A DNA stretch of 45,323 nucleotides, taken from the IMG/VR virus record IMGVR_UViG_3300028840_005170, positions 1 through 45,323 of that record, one strand, 5' to 3'. A program made the position numbers and the translations under genes. The notes beneath the pieces were generated by a model. The model was not told the origin of the DNA, made no database searches, and saw only the letters and a program-made list of their open reading frames with translations. The DNA comes from a virus. Lineage: Duplodnaviria > Caudoviricetes. Positions 4,718 through 39,780 of the stretch are shown one piece after another; the stretch's first letter is position 1; each line of letters opens with the position of its first letter.

Positions 4718-4746
4718 ATTATATCAGAAGGAGCAGAGCTTGTCAA
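4718..4746 (-). promoter_or_regulatory. sigma70-type promoter of the replication operon
   Basis: TTGACA-17 bp-TATAAT, perfect consensus with an extended -10 TG. Confidence 0.9.
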
Positions 4747-33632: not shown

Positions 33633-34409
33633 TCAGGTTCCATCGCACATGAAGGCGGCTTCGTACCAGTGGATTCCATCCTGCCACTGCTCTCTGAACC
33701 AGGCTTCGTCATAACCTGTTGCTGCCAGGGCAGCCAGGTCATTACCTCGTTCGTCGAGCCAGTTGCGGATGTTTCTCATCCACACCTCAAAGGCGTCGCT
33801 CTCGCAGGTCGCCACGAGCCGGGCGTGCTGGCGAATCGGGTCGGGCTCGTCGGGAGCGGTGAGCCAACCGCGATTCGCGGCGGCACACTCAACTTCCGGG
33901 TCGCGGTCTCCGAATCTCTCCAGCCGAGTCTTCTCGACTCGCAGCTGTTGCAGTTGCTTCTCCAGCTTCCACACCTTCACGAGTTTGCGGGCCTTGCTCA
34001 GGTCCACATCGCTCGGTCGCGGCATGTGATGCCGCTTCGAGTGAGAGCGAAAGCCGCAGACGCAGCGAATGAGGTAGAGCCACAGTTCGCCGTGCCCAGG
34101 AATCTTGATTCCCTTCAAGCAGGATTCGGTCGCCGTCTTCGGAGACCACATCCGCTTGGCAAACACGTGGCAGACCTCGTGGGCGATGGTCTCGTCGTAC
34201 GATTCCATCTTCCCGATTCGCTGGAGCATCGTGGGATAGGCGAGATTGTACTTGCACCAGATGCTGTTCGCCTTGCCCGCGGTGCCGCCCCTGCTCGCCC
34301 AGAACTGGATATCTGGGTCGGCTCGGTTCTTGACCTCCGGCAGGATTGAATCCCGCAGATGGTCCCACCAGTACTGATGCCGCTGTGCCACCCATTCCAC
34401 TACGTCCAT
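33633..34409 (-). CDS. SprT-like zinc metalloprotease
   Basis: TAGKA, DETIAHEVCH (HExxH), GHGELW, RHH; SD TAGGAGG. Confidence 0.82.
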   Translation of the reverse strand: MDVVEWVAQRHQYWWDHLRDSILPEVKNRADPDIQFWASRGGTAGKANSIWCKYNLAYPTMLQRIGKMESYDETIAHEVCHVFAKRMWSPKTATESCLKGIKIPGHGELWLYLIRCVCGFRSHSKRHHMPRPSDVDLSKARKLVKVWKLEKQLQQLRVEKTRLERFGDRDPEVECAAANRGWLTAPDEPDPIRQHARLVATCESDAFEVWMRNIRNWLDERGNDLAALAATGYDEAWFREQWQDGIHWYEAAFMCDGT

Positions 34410-34536
34410 TGGACGTCCTCCTAAATGTGGCAGCCCGCGATGTTGCGAGCTACGCTGTTTACTGTGGCTGGTCCCGCTCACCAGCTTTCGCCGGCAAGCG
34501 GGAACGGTGCTCGCCCGGGAATGGGAGAGGCGAGTG

Positions 34537-34890
34537 TTACTTTGCTTTGCCCTTGAGTCGAGCGAGTTCCAGCTCGGCTTTCGCCAGCTTGGCTTGGAGC
34601 CGCAGGATTTTCTCATCGCGGTCCATCGCTTTCCGGGTGTCCCCGAACTTTCGCTTGAATGCCAGCTCTAGCCCGGTCACGCGGGCTTCGGCTTTCACCA
34701 AGCTCTGCCGGAATTCCGGGAGCTTCGCGGCTTGCTCTTCCGCTTGGCTCACGATGGTGCGAGCAACCTTCGCACCGTGTCGGGCCTGCAGGATTCTCTG
34801 CCAAGCCCGTCGCCGGGCTTCCTTGTGTTTCTTGAGTTCCCGCTTGGCCTTGCTCAACTCAACGACTCTTCCCTTCTTGGCTTTCGCCAT
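34537..34890 (-). CDS. Basic coiled-coil early protein, 117 aa
   Basis: SD TAGGAGG; K/R/A-rich. Confidence 0.8.
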   Translation of the reverse strand: MAKAKKGRVVELSKAKRELKKHKEARRRAWQRILQARHGAKVARTIVSQAEEQAAKLPEFRQSLVKAEARVTGLELAFKRKFGDTRKAMDRDEKILRLQAKLAKAELELARLKGKAK

Positions 34891-34930
34891 CGTACTGCCT
34901 CCTATCTGTGAGAAGGAACGGATGCTACCG

Positions 34931-34972
34931 CTATGGCCCGCAGCCCGGTTTCCCAGGCTGCGAGCATTTGTC
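34931..34972 (-). repeat. Intergenic hairpin motif, copy 4
   Basis: GACAAAT-GCTCGCAGCCTGG-GAAA-CCGGGCTGCGGGC-CATAG. Confidence 0.85.
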
Positions 34973-34999
34973 GTGGCGTGCCGGCGCTGGCGAAGTCGC

Positions 35000-35440
35000 C
35001 TAGCTCTCCTGCTCCTGCTTCTCCTTCTTGAGAAGCTCCAGCTGCTTGGTGAGCTTGTCGATTTTCGCCTGCGTCTTGGAGATGGGGTCGTCCTTCGCCG
35101 CGATGGCCGCCTTCTTCTCCTGCCACTTCAGAATCTGGAAGTCGCAGTAGGCCATCTTCCCGGCCTTGGTCGCGGGGAAGTCGCCCGACCCGAGCTTGCT
35201 CAGGACCAGCTTGCCGTCTTTCTGGAAGACGGGGATGGTCTTGGCCCGGTTCGCAACGCGAACCTTCTTCTTCAGGGCCTTGGTCAGGGCGGCGTCCCGC
35301 TGCTCGGCGGTCAGCGTCTTGACGCTCTCATCCTTCTTCTGGAGCTTGGCCAGGAGATTCTCGCAAACCTCCTTCTGCTCCGGAGCGGTGAGAATGACCG
35401 GCTTGCCGTTCTTGTCCTTGCCTTCGTACTTCTTCGCCAT
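35000..35440 (-). CDS. Lys-rich early protein, 146 aa
   Basis: MAKKYEGKDKNGK...; phage-like codon bias only from this ATG onward. Confidence 0.8.
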   Translation of the reverse strand: MAKKYEGKDKNGKPVILTAPEQKEVCENLLAKLQKKDESVKTLTAEQRDAALTKALKKKVRVANRAKTIPVFQKDGKLVLSKLGSGDFPATKAGKMAYCDFQILKWQEKKAAIAAKDDPISKTQAKIDKLTKQLELLKKEKQEQES

Positions 35441-35454
35441 TGGAATGGCTCCCA

Positions 35455-35569
35455 TCTGTGCCCTCTTCGGGCGTGTGACTCGGTCTCGACCATCACTGCG
35501 ACGGGCGAGCGGGGTCAGGTTCTGATAGCCGCCTCCTAAACGGCTGTCGAGAAAAATGGGACAGACTCG
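35455..35569 (-). ncRNA. Candidate structured leader motif, copy A
   Basis: Shares blocks CGAGTCTGTCCC, TAGGAGGCGGmTATCmGA and CACACGCCC..GGGCACAGA with 36646-36754. Confidence 0.55.
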
Positions 35570-35637
35570 GACTGGTGCTCTCGCCCGCGGTTTGGCGAAC
35601 GAGAGCAACGTGTTGCTGCGAGGGATGATTCGGTCGG

Positions 35638-35892
35638 CTAGACGGTGGGCGGCGGTGCGTCGTATTGTTGCACCACCTCGAAGCACCGATTGACGACCGC
35701 ATTCACCGCGGCATCGCGGCGGAGCTTGGCGAGATTCCGCTCCATGCGGGCGAGCTTGCGAGCCGTCGCATTCGGTTCCAAGCTCGCAGTGTCGGTGCAC
35801 GCTTGCTCGCAGAGAGCCACCCGTTTGACCGCAGCGGCGTAGTCTGCCATTGCGGTCTCGAGGGCGGCCATCCATTGAGGCACGCCTGCCAT
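35638..35892 (-). CDS. Hypothetical early protein, 84 aa
   Basis: SD TAGGAGG within a 21-bp repeat. Confidence 0.75.
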   Translation of the reverse strand: MAGVPQWMAALETAMADYAAAVKRVALCEQACTDTASLEPNATARKLARMERNLAKLRRDAAVNAVVNRCFEVVQQYDAPPPTV

Positions 35893-35946
35893 TGCTCTAC
35901 CTCCTACTCTGTCTTCGGATTGGCAGAGGGCACGTTGCTCTCTGCT

Positions 35947-35988
35947 CTATGGCTGCTCGCCGGCTCTCGCCAGCGGGCAGCATATGTC
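35947..35988 (-). repeat. Intergenic hairpin motif, copy 3
   Basis: GACATAT-GCTGCCCGCTGGC-GAGA-GCCGGCGAGCAGC-CATAG. Confidence 0.85.
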
Positions 35989-36007
35989 GGGCAGCCGGAG
36001 GCTGCGG

Positions 36008-36175
36008 TCAGCAAGCGGCAGCCACTGACTCGTTGAACCGGGTCAGGTGCTTGCAGTGCTTGTGGAACCGCCATCCGGGGCAGGTGCAGTAAATCCTGCC
36101 GTCTCTGCCGAGGCGAATCGAGTAGTAGCGGTCACTGCTCGAACTCTTGTAACGCCTCAGTGCTTTGCCAGCCAT
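36008..36175 (-). CDS. 55-aa SWIM zinc-finger protein (not in the ORF track)
   Basis: MAGKALRRYKSSSSDRYYSIRLGRDGRIYCTCPGWRFHKHCKHLTRF...; CxC..CxH; SD TAGGAGG. Confidence 0.85.
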   Translation of the reverse strand: MAGKALRRYKSSSSDRYYSIRLGRDGRIYCTCPGWRFHKHCKHLTRFNESVAAAC

Positions 36176-36213
36176 CTGCTCTCCTCCTACTCTGTTTTCA
36201 AAGGGACGCCGGG

Positions 36214-36255
36214 ATATGCTCGCCCGCCGCGTTTCGGCAGCGGGCGAGATTTGTC
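36214..36255 (-). repeat. Intergenic hairpin motif, copy 2
   Basis: GACAAAT-CTCGCCCGCTGCC-GAAA-CGCGGCGGGCGAG-CATAT. Confidence 0.85.
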
Positions 36256-36278
36256 AGGCTCGCAAGAGCGCGGCTCGG

Positions 36279-36629
36279 TCAGCCGCCCATGGCCTCGAGC
36301 TTCTTCGTGAGCTTCGCGACCTTGGCTTCGAGGGCCTTGCGGCGAGCGGCCGCGCGGTCGGCTTTCGCCTTCTCCCTCTCGGCCTTCTTTTCGGCCCGCT
36401 CGGCTTCGCGGGCTTCGCGGGTCGCGGCCCGATGGGCCTTCGCCACGGTGCGGTCGACCGCGACCGCCAGCTTCTGGAGCTTCTCGGTCGTGTCGTAGCC
36501 CGCCTTCGTGGCGGCCTGCTCGAGGGCGACGATTGCCTTCTTCACCGCGACCTGCTTGGTCACGATGCTCGCGGGCACCTTCACCTCGGTCGTGGCCTTC
36601 TTGCTCTTGCTCTTCTGTGCCTTCGCCAT
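36279..36629 (-). CDS. Ala/Lys-rich basic coiled-coil early protein, 116 aa
   Basis: SD AAGGAG; histone-like composition. Confidence 0.8.
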   Translation of the reverse strand: MAKAQKSKSKKATTEVKVPASIVTKQVAVKKAIVALEQAATKAGYDTTEKLQKLAVAVDRTVAKAHRAATREAREAERAEKKAEREKAKADRAAARRKALEAKVAKLTKKLEAMGG

Positions 36630-36645
36630 CGTATCGCTCCTTCAG

Positions 36646-36754
36646 TCTGTGCCCGCGGATGCGGGCGTGTGGTTGGCGAGCACCGAAATGGTCTCGCCGA
36701 GCCGACTGCTCGGATATCCGCCTCCTACGGATATAGAGTTCAGGGACAGACTCG
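36646..36754 (-). ncRNA. Candidate structured leader motif, copy B
   Basis: AGTCTGT/ACAGACT closing stem around several hairpins, one (ATATCCG/CGGATAT) presenting TAGGAGG in its loop. Confidence 0.55.
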
Positions 36755-36759
36755 AATGG

Positions 36760-36801
36760 CTATGGCTGCCCGCCGGCTTTCGCCGGCGGGCAGCATTTGT
36801 C
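36760..36801 (-). repeat. Intergenic hairpin motif, copy 1
   Basis: GACAAAT-GCTGCCCGCCGGC-GAAA-GCCGGCGGGCAGC-CATAG (perfect 13-bp stem). Confidence 0.88.
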
Positions 36802-36824
36802 TTGGTCGCTCGGTCGTCTCGCCG

Positions 36825-37052
36825 TTAGACCAGAGCCGGGATTCCCAGCTCGGTGCAGTAGCGGCGGAGGCGAGCGGTGCGGCGATAGATGATGCGGCGG
36901 TACTTGTTCCGCATCCGGCGGACCTGGCTCTTGGCCTTGCGGCTGAAAGCTCCGCGCAGGTCGACCGCCTTCCATTCGCCCAAGAGCCTCTCGTTCCGGC
37001 GGATTGCGGCGAGGTGCTCCCAAACGCGCTCCTGCATTCTGCTCTGCGACAT
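36825..37052 (-). CDS. Arg-rich 75-aa protein, first gene of the early transcript
   Basis: SD TAGGAGG; RKAKSQVRRMRNKYRRIIYRRTARLRR. Confidence 0.8.
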   Translation of the reverse strand: MSQSRMQERVWEHLAAIRRNERLLGEWKAVDLRGAFSRKAKSQVRRMRNKYRRIIYRRTARLRRYCTELGIPALV

Positions 37053-37073
37053 CTTCCTGCCTCCTACTCTGTC

Positions 37074-37165
37074 TTCGGATAGGGCTGCCTCGTCAGGCCC
37101 GGGTAGCCCATAATCCCCGGGCGACTCGCGGAGTTAGGAGGGCTCCGCGAGTTTCGGCATCCGAA
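37074..37165 (-). ncRNA. Hammerhead ribozyme, type II; predicted cleavage between 37123 and 37122
   Basis: UGCC-GAAA-CUCGCGGAG[cccuccuaa]CUCCGCGAG-UC/GCCCGGG[gauuaugggcua]CCCGGGC-CUGACGA-GGCA: complete core (GAAA, GUC, CUGAnGA), three paired stems, extended stem II UUCGGAU/AUCCGAA, loop I GGGCU complementary to the stem II bulge AGCCC. Confidence 0.92.
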
Positions 37166-37520
37166 TAAGAGTCTGTGTTCTCCGTCACCGCGGGTACTTT
37201 CAGGCTCGGCTGAGTAAGCCCGGCACCGCTCCGAACTGAAGGAGGGAGGTGCTCGCCCGATTTCCCGAGGCTCGCGTCTCACGACGGAAGCCCGCGTTTA
37301 CCAGAGCATCCCGAGAAATCCTTTTCCACCGTGTGGCGGCCGTCGGGACGGACGGCTCGCCGGTTTCGGATTTCGTGGCCCAGAGTGCCTCTCGCCATTT
37401 GGCGGTCACCGGCGGGAAAATGCTTTGCGAGATACCACGCCCAGCGGTCGCTTCGGTCGTCTCGCCGCTCGTTCCCACGTTTTGCCCGGGGCTTCCAATT
37501 GTCAATGAGCATCAGTTCAT
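37166..37520 (-). ncRNA. Long structured non-coding leader / candidate ncRNA
   Basis: No RBS-supported ORF; long-range pair GGAAGCCC (37496-37489) with GGGCTTCC (37293-37286) enclosing several hairpins. Confidence 0.5.
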
Positions 37521-37525
37521 CTACC

Positions 37526-37554
37526 AGTATCGCACACGGCGATAGAGGTGTCAA
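37526..37554 (-). promoter_or_regulatory. Strong sigma70-type early promoter
   Basis: TTGACA-17 bp-GATACT, extended -10 TG, AT-rich UP-like tract (AAGATATTTTTTGAGAAA) upstream. Confidence 0.88.
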
Positions 37555-37645
37555 TGGTTTCTCAAAAAATATCTTGCATCCTGTTGCATCCAGGAGCCGC
37601 CTCGAGGCATTCCAGAAATAGTCGCCATTTTCCTGGGCTGCCGTG

Positions 37646-37768
37646 GCTGCTCTGCTGCTGCTCTGCTGCTCTGCTCTGCTCTGCTGCTCTGCTGCTGCCC
37701 AGCAGAGCCTGAGGCTCTCTGCTGCTCTGCTCTGCTGCTCTGCTGCTCTGCTCTGCTGCTGCTCTGCT
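37646..37768. repeat. Tandem array of GCTCT/GCT units with a central inverted unit
   Basis: ~120 bp of (GCTCT)(GCT)n, interrupted at 37700-37718 by CAGCAGAGCC-TGA-GGCTCT. Confidence 0.92.
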
Positions 37769-39780
37769 CACACACCGCCATGCCCCTTCGTGCTGGTGCC
37801 TTCGTATTTCCGCTGTTCCCGAATGGCCCACGTCATTCGTGTGGCTGCCACGCTTGCGGCAAGAGCCGCCTCGAACTGCTCTCGCGTGGCATCCCGTGGA
37901 ATGCTCTGGGCTTGAGCCCACGAGGATACCGAGACCTTCACATCGACCCGCATCGGAATCCGGAAGTCGCTGGATTCGGCGATGGGCACCACCCGCTGGT
38001 AGAACTCGTAAGCCCGCTCCCGCAACACGCTCCAGAGATGTGAGTCGTGCACAAGGTCGAGAAGCCACGGGTCGAACTCGGGCCCGAGCTGTTCGTCGAT
38101 TTCCGTGGCCTTGAGCTTGGCGTGGTCTCCCGCGGTGCCTTGAATGATGTAGTTCACGCCCTTGTACGAGTGCTTTGCGTGAAGCCGATAGATGCGGCCA
38201 AAGTAATTCTTGACCCAGCCACGGACGCGGCACATGGTAGCCACGAGCTTCTGGAACTTCTGGATTTCTGGAATCATCGTGTGATACTCGGCGTAGAGCT
38301 TCTCCGCTACCGCTGAGGTCTCGGCATTCGTGAGGTGCTTGGCTTGCTCCTTCATGGCGGTGCCTGACACCAGAAGCTGGTGGAGCTTGGCTTCCATCCG
38401 CTCATCACCACGACGGAGGGCGAGCACGAGCACCGCGGTGAGGGATTTCAACAGGGCCTTCTTGCCCATCCCATAGATGAACGAGAAGTTCTGGGTCTTG
38501 GCGAATTGCCGAGGGACGCCCAGCATGTCTGCGAGGAATTGATGGAAGTCGGCGTCGATGTTTTCCGCATAGGCCTTCATAATCATCGGGCTCTGTGTGT
38601 AGTGCCCGAAGATTCGATACTCCATTTGTGAGTAATCAAAGTAGAGGAACACGCGACCGGGGGCTGGGATAATCCAGCCCTCTGCCACGTCGTCAATGTT
38701 CTGGAAGTTCGGGTCGCTCGACGAGAGTCGGCCCGTAATGGTGCCCCATTGCTTGAACTCGGGATGGATGCGGTCGTTCTCGTCGAGCCGGTTATACCAG
38801 CCCTCGCAGTAGGTCGAGAGGAAGTGCGAGAGTCGCGTGGCTCCGGCTAAAGTTTCGCCGAAATTGTCCGGGCACTGTGCCGGGTATTTCGCCGACTCTA
38901 GCCCGAGAGCGGTCCAGGAGGGGTCGCCCGTTCGGGTGAAGGCGATGGGCTCTATGCCCAGCTCGTGCCATAGGAATTTGGTGAGGGCTTTACCAGAATT
39001 GACATTGACCTCGTAGCCCGCCACGCCCTTGATAATCTCCAAGAGCTTGATGAGTTCGGGGAGCAAGCCCATCCAGTCGTCTCGGAGATTCTCCCGGTGA
39101 ATCAGAACGCCACGAATCTCGGACTTGAGCAGGAGCTTGGTAGTCCGCTTCTCAATTTCCCAGATACGCGTGGAAACTGCGGGGAGCTTGGCAAGCAGTT
39201 TCAGGCGGAGCTTCGCAGCCAGGCACGCGTCCCGTTCGGCATAGGGGCCCAGCACACGGATAGGAACGCGTCCGAAATCCTTGGACTTGATAGATTTCAG
39301 ATAGGCTGCTGGCTTGTCGTCTTTGCGGCCACCGACGTAATCAGCAGCGGCAGCGGCAAGCGAGTAGCCTCGCCCGCCGAATCGCTTGTCTCGTTGTTCG
39401 TCCACGATTCGCAAGAGCACCATCGTATCCTCGATGGGTCCGGCAAACTCAATGCCGTCGAAGTGCATAAAGCGAGCGTCGAACTTCGCATTGTGATTCG
39501 CATACAGGATATCCTTTCGTGCGAACAGAGTGCGAAGGTACTCTTGCACCGCGGCGAGCGGGAGATTCTCGTATTGGTCGACCTCTTGGCAGTGGTGCCG
39601 AATCGGAAGATACCACGACTCGGTGCCTTGCTCGTTCGCCAGAGCATAACCGCAGACACGATGCCCGTGGAAGGGCTTGAACGCCTTGTCCTTATCATCC
39701 CAGCTGGTGGTCTCAACGTCGCAGACCACCACGGAATTTTCGGACCATTCGGGCAGGGCCTTGAGGTCTTGAACTATCAT
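37768..39780 (-). CDS. polA: DNA polymerase, family A, with 3'-5' exonuclease
   Basis: CDVET, NHNAKFD, YAERDA; TITGRLSSSDPNFQNI, DYSQMEYR, RQFAKTQNFSFIYG, NYIIQGTAGD, VHDS. Confidence 0.96.
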   Translation of the reverse strand: MIVQDLKALPEWSENSVVVCDVETTSWDDKDKAFKPFHGHRVCGYALANEQGTESWYLPIRHHCQEVDQYENLPLAAVQEYLRTLFARKDILYANHNAKFDARFMHFDGIEFAGPIEDTMVLLRIVDEQRDKRFGGRGYSLAAAAADYVGGRKDDKPAAYLKSIKSKDFGRVPIRVLGPYAERDACLAAKLRLKLLAKLPAVSTRIWEIEKRTTKLLLKSEIRGVLIHRENLRDDWMGLLPELIKLLEIIKGVAGYEVNVNSGKALTKFLWHELGIEPIAFTRTGDPSWTALGLESAKYPAQCPDNFGETLAGATRLSHFLSTYCEGWYNRLDENDRIHPEFKQWGTITGRLSSSDPNFQNIDDVAEGWIIPAPGRVFLYFDYSQMEYRIFGHYTQSPMIMKAYAENIDADFHQFLADMLGVPRQFAKTQNFSFIYGMGKKALLKSLTAVLVLALRRGDERMEAKLHQLLVSGTAMKEQAKHLTNAETSAVAEKLYAEYHTMIPEIQKFQKLVATMCRVRGWVKNYFGRIYRLHAKHSYKGVNYIIQGTAGDHAKLKATEIDEQLGPEFDPWLLDLVHDSHLWSVLRERAYEFYQRVVPIAESSDFRIPMRVDVKVSVSSWAQAQSIPRDATREQFEAALAASVAATRMTWAIREQRKYEGTSTKGHGGV

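Follow-up and report, generated by a model that had tools for sequence, protein, structure and literature searches.

Does a self-cleaving ribozyme placed directly ahead of a phage gene only process the leader, or does its cleavage also control access of ribosomes to that gene? The question is raised by a hammerhead ribozyme in the leader of a run of small phage genes, of which two elements, a 5' arm and the loop of stem III, are complementary to the ribosome-binding site (RBS) of the first gene of the run. A review describes the biological role of bacterial ribozymes as largely elusive, and in its available text processing of polycistronic RNA and altered stability or translation are given as suggestions only (PMC6765202). 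The present locus offers a small, testable case, of approximately 130 nucleotides, in which arm, loop and core can all be mutated.

Genomic context

The window analysed here is the whole stretch of 45,323 nucleotides, which corresponds to the complete phage record (45.3 kb, 60% G+C) and has a 144-nt terminal overlap. All annotatable genes are on the minus strand, as are the promoter-like, ribozyme and hairpin features described below, and they include genes for terminase, portal, head and tail proteins, primase-helicase, thymidylate synthase, DNA polymerase and ligase. The nearest cultured helicases are approximately 32% identical to that of the phage. The polymerase gene (39780-37768) is followed by a CTGCT-type tandem repeat, a promoter-like site, a leader of approximately 470 nt and the run of small genes. 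The tandem repeat (37646-37769) lies between the polymerase gene and the promoter and is a possible origin or genome end. The promoter-like site (37554-37526; TTGACA, 17 nt, TG-GATACT) agrees with the sigma-70 consensus at 10 of 12 positions, with a start predicted near 37520. It is the sole such site between 33000 and 38200 and one of two in the genome that score at least 10 matches. A 12/12 sigma-70 consensus promoter with TG (4718-4746) is found ahead of a helicase gene, and the replication genes also lie behind it, across the contig join.

The first gene after the hammerhead encodes a 75-aa Arg-rich protein (36825-37052, ATG at 37052). A protein search with it returned only the protein itself, no ESM Atlas family was found (best 0.80), and none of the seven small genes of the operon had a match in PHROGs. 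The 145-aa Lys-rich protein encoded further downstream (35000-35437) likewise returned only itself in the protein search, and tblastn detected homologs in six relatives, with 37-58% identity over 40-79 aa; on these homologs it is a conserved early gene of unassigned role. The operon is termed early because of its layout, namely the promoter-like site and synteny, so that the description of the 75-aa gene as the first early gene in the first-pass annotation is a reading of that layout.

The leader has features of its own. The predicted transcript opens with AUG-AAC-UGA (37520-37512), a frame of two codons; its stop shares bases with the AUG of a longer leader frame, of 78 codons, which was not found among called genes. 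Four versions of a leader ORF (37279-37554 with shorter forms, and 37200-37505) were looked up in the protein collection and none was present; this absence is weak evidence, because our version of the 116-aa gene is also missing from that collection. Right behind the predicted start, at 37500-37511, is a boxA-like element, and similar elements are found in the leaders of two relatives, G004 and G006. It suggests rRNA-type antitermination of the small-gene operon. BoxA is described in PMC10250234.

Scans of viral contigs with polymerase peptides for close relatives and with the 21-nt RBS motif gave no match, and blastn of 34300-37650 against cultured phages gave nine short matches only, with 1-2% cover. 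Across these searches the element was found in this genome only. The hammerhead region is identical in two DNA runs, either of which may be the source of the record, and no RNA run was listed that contains the stretch.

Fold, core and predicted cut site of the hammerhead

The Rfam model RF02276 (Hammerhead_II) matches positions 37159-37079 with 41.6 bits (gathering cut-off 37, E 3e-5). This is the only gathering-level Rfam match in the window, and no second ribozyme was detected between 33000 and 38200 at E values up to 10. The Infernal comparison with the Rfam hammerhead models, proposed as a check when the locus was first annotated as a complete type II hammerhead, thus came out above threshold, and the core is intact with all three stems. 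The 5' strand of stem II and the core GAAA (37155-37152) occupy 37152-37159. They are followed by the 10-bp stem III (37124-37152), closed by loop III CCCUCCUAA at 37142-37134, and by the GUC triplet (37125-37123) with the core UC at 37124-37123. Stem I (37097-37122) has 7 bp and a 12-nt loop I; the core CUGACGA (37096-37090), which matches CUGANGA, the 3' strand of stem II and a pseudoknot strand AGCCC follow at 37082-37096. Stems I and III are loop-closed and stem II is open, with 3-4 bp plus an extension, as in type II hammerheads. The type II pseudoknot can be drawn between GGGCU of loop I (37109-37105) and AGCCC (37086-37082), over 5 bp.

From the hammerhead consensus, cleavage is predicted 3' of C17 (37123), so that the 3' product would start at 37122. 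This agrees with the site given previously, the GUC at 37123 about 70 nt from the ATG at 37052. The stem I hairpin would form the 5' end of the processed mRNA. With three 5' ends tried, the hammerhead fold lay 0.7-2.1 kcal/mol from the ensemble. By each feature checked in the sequence, the locus belongs to the type II hammerheads.

Position of hammerheads in related phages

A loop-blind scan of viral contigs, in which a GCC/GGC stem II was required, yielded 135 loci from 6 of the 64 parts of the collection (approximately 1300 estimated overall), and a helicase-based search gave relatives at 41 loci, of which 35 records were searched whole. After a stem filter, the blind loci and the hammerheads of the helicase relatives made up 147 distinct cores. 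An SD-like (Shine-Dalgarno-like) motif and a start codon occur within 80 nt of 123 of them, compared with 29% in shuffled sequences, and the median distance from cut to start is 60 nt. A position close to the SD is thus, by sequence comparison, the norm among phage type II hammerheads. As a side result, most phage type II hammerheads are found approximately 60 nt before a start codon and usually have a plain, short loop III.

Members of the family were present in 8 of the 35 helicase-relative records and in 5 of the 13 near-complete ones. G014 contains an array (L653:14123-19420) of ten type II hammerheads, as selected by our own filter, in approximately 5.3 kb, and most of the copies directly follow a stop codon and precede an SD, among small genes. 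The site equivalent to the present one is occupied by a hammerhead in both G004 and G014, in the order polymerase gene, hammerhead, first small gene; in G006 it is taken by a long hairpin. A promoter read by eye ahead of the G014 leader was not returned by the scanner and was discarded.

In the present genome, four related intergenic hairpins of 13-16 bp (36801-36760, 36255-36214, 35988-35947 and 34972-34931; family D2) lie between 34931 and 36801, and with two looser hairpins near 35600 and 34500 they fill every gap between the small genes. These gaps thus hold hairpins where relatives have hammerheads, and the hairpins are possibly RNase III-type processing sites.

That the position is common in relatives fits the processing role proposed in the literature. 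As described in the available text of PMC3088659, prophage genes are flanked by type II hammerheads in tandem, which cleave native polycistronic RNAs, and the early transcript of halovirus HF2 starts near its own hammerhead cut.

The 5' arm and the extension of stem II

The 5' arm of the hammerhead (37159-37177) pairs with 37080-37066 and thereby extends stem II by two helices, of 6-7 bp and 5 bp, which together contribute 12.2 kcal/mol to the fold. The extension ends at the first U of the SD, in line with the previous statement that it reaches the SD. This U is the only one of the seven SD bases that is paired in the best fold. In a second register the arm pairs with 37069-37061 and covers six of the seven, at a cost of 2.9 kcal/mol. 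The arm UUCGG can also fold back onto the core CCGAA; the resulting arm-core hairpin has the same energy as the bare core fold (-37.4 kcal/mol each), and with the extension the ribozyme is favoured. The 3' strand of the extended stem II together with the SD UAGGAGG (37060-37080) belongs to a repeat family, D12, and this 21-mer recurs ahead of the gene at 35892, where a second copy of the RBS region, 25/27 identical (35897-35923), is found without a hammerhead.

Pairing between arm and RBS was compared with that of shuffled arms, in tests and at arm lengths that were both chosen after the data were seen. For arms of 15 and 20 nt, z was -3.4 and -2.9, and none of 94 scorable blind hammerheads was as low. 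At 25, 30 and 40 nt the signal fell to -2.4, -2.0 and -1.65, with 1, 3 and 6 blind cases as low, and an alternative definition of the arm gave p 0.079. A z of -2 or below was reached by 1-4 of 20 hammerheads from relatives compared with 1-5 of 93-94 blind ones (Fisher p 0.017-0.44 over five arm lengths).

In the first hammerhead of G014, an unrelated arm forms 9 bp with the hammerhead's own SD (p 0.008 at 15 nt, 0.002 at 20 nt and 0.26 at 30 nt). None of the seven other scorable copies in G014 has such an arm (lowest p 0.057), the targets of two more being too short. The arms of G019 and of one of the two G010 copies also pair with the SD (p 0.002 and 0.008 at the best arm length), and that of G017, which is the end of a coding region, has a p within 0.002-0.008 at one length. 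No signal was obtained for an SD-pairing arm in the leader hammerhead of G004 or in G002, G007, G016 and G030. From this comparison the arm has more support than loop III.

Loop III and its complementarity to the SD

Seven of the nine nucleotides of loop III can pair with the SD UAGGAGG (37066-37060), so that the exact complementarity reported in the first-pass annotation holds over 7 nt of the loop. By complementarity, a loop III pseudoknot could pair all seven bases of the SD. The transcribed strand of the genome contains a single CCUCCUA and ten copies of UAGGAGG, seven of the latter between 34417 and 37066; on both strands UAGGAGG has 11 matches compared with 3.1 expected, a number not reached in 100 shuffles. 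The chance of finding such a 7-mer in a 9-nt loop is 1.4e-4, or 5.8e-4 over four registers, before allowing for the selection made by the scan. The match runs from the loop on into stem III past a one-base bulge. Stems II and III stack coaxially in the active hammerhead fold, and the SD region is probably not bound by loop III and the extended stem II simultaneously, because of this end-to-end stacking.

A joint scan of genome, metagenome and viral contigs with four hexamers yielded 116 cores, among which CCTCCT was fully exposed in 6, TCTCCT in 4, TCCCCT in 9 and CCCCCT in 2. One of the six exposed CCTCCT cases is the present genome and four have the same loop sequence. When the stem III region was scanned, 10 of 105 CCTCCT matches were true cores, compared with 13 of 79 for the control TCCCCT. 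At least four bases of the hexamer were free in 7 of the 10 CCTCCT cores compared with none of the 13 TCCCCT cores, and this greater unpairing speaks mildly for the anti-SD reading. Loops matched their own RBS no better than those of others (permutation p 0.35-0.67, 18-19 loops). Among the 147 cores, loop III has 3-5 nt in 124, contains CUCC or UCCU in none, and matches its own RBS over at most 5 nt. The loop III of the present phage was not found in the hammerheads of relatives, and G038, G039 and G040 contain sister hammerhead copies without an anti-SD loop. A family-wide selection for anti-SD loops was therefore rejected, given no enrichment over controls, no preference for the own RBS and no conservation, and on the same grounds the emphasis originally placed on loop III is not upheld.

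Other loops and leader stretches resemble anti-SD sequences. L097, a lone hammerhead in a complete genome, has a 14-nt loop that matches its own SD over 7 nt. In one lineage (L035 of G036, L405, L411, L421 and L443) loop III ACCUCCUC is kept while stem I varies; a sister copy has UCCCUCC, and SD matches extend over only 4-5 nt. Six hammerheads from soil-type genomes and metagenomes (L398, L399, L422, L454, L459 and L510) have exposed C-rich loops III similar to AUCCCCU, several with a shared motif downstream and no clear SD. A second anti-SD-like stretch is present in the leader of the phage at 37235-37257, and CUCCUUCAGU is a 10-nt complement of the RBS of the 116-aa gene (36646-36637); several matches of 10-11 nt between these regions arise by chance.

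Predicted RBS accessibility and release of the products

After cleavage the two products are held together by approximately -5.6 kcal/mol in nested folding, which is weak enough for them to separate. Opening of the 30S footprint required 12.9-18.6 kcal/mol in the hammerhead fold, compared with 8.9 for a product whose pseudoknot strands were blocked. Without constraints the figures were 9.7-13.5 for the precursor and 10.6 for the product, and 5.6-8.4 and 7.1, respectively, for the segment from SD to AUG. Because the constrained and unconstrained figures disagree, a gain in RBS opening is plausible yet model-dependent.

Both inhibitory elements had been placed on the 5' product. This is the case for the arm and loop III. 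However, a third stretch, CCCUAUCC (37084-37077), pairs with the SD in nested folding and stays on the 3' product, and therefore not all SD-pairing elements leave with the 5' product. Of the proposal that cleavage releases an anti-SD strand and switches translation on, the release is thermodynamically plausible and the arm is unusual among phage hammerheads and has a counterpart of different sequence in G014, whereas the weight given to loop III does not stand and the gain in RBS opening depends on the model.

Module B and the UAGGAGG hairpin loops

The first annotation had named the other UAGGAGG sites as targets on which the freed fragment could act in trans. Two of them, at 36727 and 35538, are not followed by a start codon and form hairpin loops, each behind a long intergenic hairpin; they are not SDs, and loop III could form a kissing interaction with them. 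Both belong to a repeated leader element, module B. Copy 1, in the leader of the 116-aa gene (36629-36754), consists of CGAGUCUGUCCC, a UAGGAGG-loop hairpin (36734-36714), CACACGCCCG and GGGCACAGA; copy 2, in the leader of the 145-aa gene (35437-35569), has the same blocks and a hairpin at 35545-35527 with loop UUUAGGAGG. The copies have diverged in a covarying manner, in that the loops and the three blocks are kept and the hairpin stems have changed yet still pair.

Loop III is complementary to the two module B loops over 7 and 8 nt. The arm motif ACAGACUC (37176-37169) occurs once on the transcribed strand, and its complement GAGUCUGU only in the two module B copies; shuffles of the 63-nt 5' domain matched two conserved blocks in 72 of 20000 cases. 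The arm motif also directly repeats the 3' strand of module B itself, so that shared ancestry could explain the match. For the RBS at 36189, the predicted binding energy of the fragment is -10.6 kcal/mol, stronger than that to its own 3' product. Against six other early RBSs, with gene starts set manually, 22 of 1500 shuffles and 65 of 318 other windows of the leader were as good as the arm. Strand invasion as a means of opening the module B SDs received no support, as occupation of GAGUCUGU changed the opening energies only from 5.6 to 5.7 and from 12.7 to 12.8 kcal/mol. A search of 18 stretches from nine relatives turned up no start-less TAGGAG hairpin loop.

Interpretation

We give about even credence to the reading that the hammerhead cuts the leader and that the arm covers the ribosome landing site of the first gene until the cut-off leader falls away. 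In such a scheme, transcription would start near 37520, and the newly made RBS region would pair with the arm, displace the weak arm-core hairpin and complete the ribozyme. In the precursor the 30S landing site would be masked by the arm or, alternatively, by the loop III pseudoknot. After cleavage the pieces would be held only by stem II and its extension and would then separate, leaving a processed mRNA with the stem I hairpin and pseudoknot at its 5' end and a more open RBS. What can be read directly from the sequence is the ribozyme fold and the complementarity of arm to RBS and of loop III to SD. The masking reading is favoured by the core, the position, the synteny with G004 and G014, the z values of the arm, the arm of G014, the energetics and the engineered precedents described below. 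It is weakened by the fading of the arm signal with length, its absence from G004, the pairing of a single SD base in the best fold and the lack of conservation of loop III, as well as by the small unconstrained difference between precursor and product, the presence of CCCUAUCC on the 3' product and the lack of a close relative. That the base function is the processing common to phage hammerheads, with masking as a local add-on carried mainly by the arm, is likewise held with evenly balanced confidence; loop III would then be a secondary, unconfirmed element of masking.

Processing may also be all there is. The hammerhead would then only trim the leader and leave a hairpin-protected 5' end, and the complementarities would be by-products of reused short motifs, singled out by a large scan. 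We regard this as possible but rather doubtful. The SD-proximal position is normal (123/147), exposed anti-SD hexamers are no commoner than controls and loops do not prefer their own RBS, ACAGA and GGCGAG(C)ACC recur across leaders, and processing of polycistronic RNA is the role suggested in the available literature (PMC3088659, PMC6765202). It leaves unexplained, however, that two separate elements, arm and loop III, target one RBS, that blind loops of 3-5 nt in 124/147 and none with CUCC or UCCU form the background, and that the leader arm of G014 repeats the design.

The released leader might, alternatively, be a trans-acting small RNA whose loop III kisses the UAGGAGG loops and other small-gene SDs while the arm pairs adjacent to those sites, so that the accumulating fragment damps or retunes the operon. 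The two start-less (U)UAGGAGG loops, kept with three blocks on stems that vary but pair, the 7 and 8 bp available to loop III, the restriction of the complement of ACAGACUC to module B (72/20000 shuffles) and the binding at 36189 argue in its favour, as does the use of anti-SD hairpin loops to define the cuckoo sRNAs (PMC4615179, available text). We nevertheless consider it unlikely: 65 of 318 leader windows bind early RBSs as well as the arm, occupying GAGUCUGU leaves the module B SDs unopened, start-less TAGGAG loops are absent from the relatives' stretches, and the arm motif directly repeats the module B 3' strand. The module B loops could presumably bind a GGA-binding protein instead. They may also be 30S-binding stabilisers of the STAB-SD kind (PMC4113751, available text). 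A combination of the ribozyme-timed switch with a released two-handed antisense RNA, in which arm and loop III dock on the UAGGAGG loops and downstream SDs, appears improbable to us; if true, the early operon of the phage would be timed by a feedback clock made of RNA alone. Least probable, and in our view very unlikely, is control in the reverse direction, from RBS to ribozyme: pulling the arm off the core would require the RBS strand, SD pairing at loop III would extend into stem III, and ribosomes or early mRNAs would set the cut rate. The equal energies of the arm-core hairpin and the bare core fold, with the extension tipping to the ribozyme, and the continuation of the anti-SD match into stem III after the one-base bulge agree with it, and in E. 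coli a hammerhead is inhibited by an engineered RNA that binds at loop 3 and opens stem 3 (PMC3664830, available text). However, stem III is stable (-16.9 kcal/mol), the bases flanking the loop remain paired in the ensemble, and the comparison of relatives gives no support.

Relation to known systems

Masking of the RBS by the arm, the reading that we prefer, can be set beside several known systems, compared here from the available texts of the papers cited. The locus shares the open stem II, the pseudoknot between loop I and the 3' tail and the intergenic phage position with the type II hammerheads of bacteria and prophages (RF02276; Perreault et al. 2011, PMC3088659). The halovirus HF1/HF2 hammerhead (PMC3088659) is likewise just before the first gene, in an early polycistronic transcript with a 5' end mapped near the cut. 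In comparison with the hammerheads in that paper, the present one has a long two-part extension of stem II up to the SD and, as loop III, 9 nt with an anti-SD sequence. On a word search, neither "translation" nor "ribosome" occurred in the available text of PMC3088659, and the literature searched, comprising few subscription papers, contained no natural hammerhead whose arm or loop masks the SD.

The anti-SD motif in a hairpin loop recalls the cuckoo/ar14 sRNAs (PMC4615179). However, a cuckoo RNA comprises 2-4 adjacent hairpins with CCUCCUCCC and is no ribozyme domain, whereas a single loop CCCUCCUAA is present here, and with one loop and no such Rfam match an identity with cuckoo/ar14 was rejected. 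Like STAB-SD (PMC4113751), the sites at 36727 and 35538 are SD-like, lie approximately 90-100 nt ahead of a start codon and do not direct initiation; unlike STAB-SD they sit in hairpin loops. In RiboJ, which increases protein 2- to 10-fold (PMC6206723), an upstream leader is similarly removed and a hairpin-capped 5' end is left before the RBS, but RiboJ is synthetic and is without a designed RBS mask.

The closest parallel to RBS masking is in engineered ribozymes. Hammerheads that mask the RBS and are switched on by cleavage were constructed in E. coli (Klauser and Hartig 2013, PMC3664830), and versions with a twister ribozyme followed the same principle (PMC5052635). As in these, the RBS here would be covered by part of the 5' product and freed by cleavage. 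In the engineered maskers the SD is fully paired in an extended stem I and controlled by aptamers or RNAs, whereas the stem II extension of the present hammerhead is predicted to mask mostly 5' of the SD and has no ligand domain. The leader hammerhead of G014, with a different SD-pairing arm, is an independent case. If cleavage gates translation, the present locus would represent in nature a design that has so far been seen in engineered switches.
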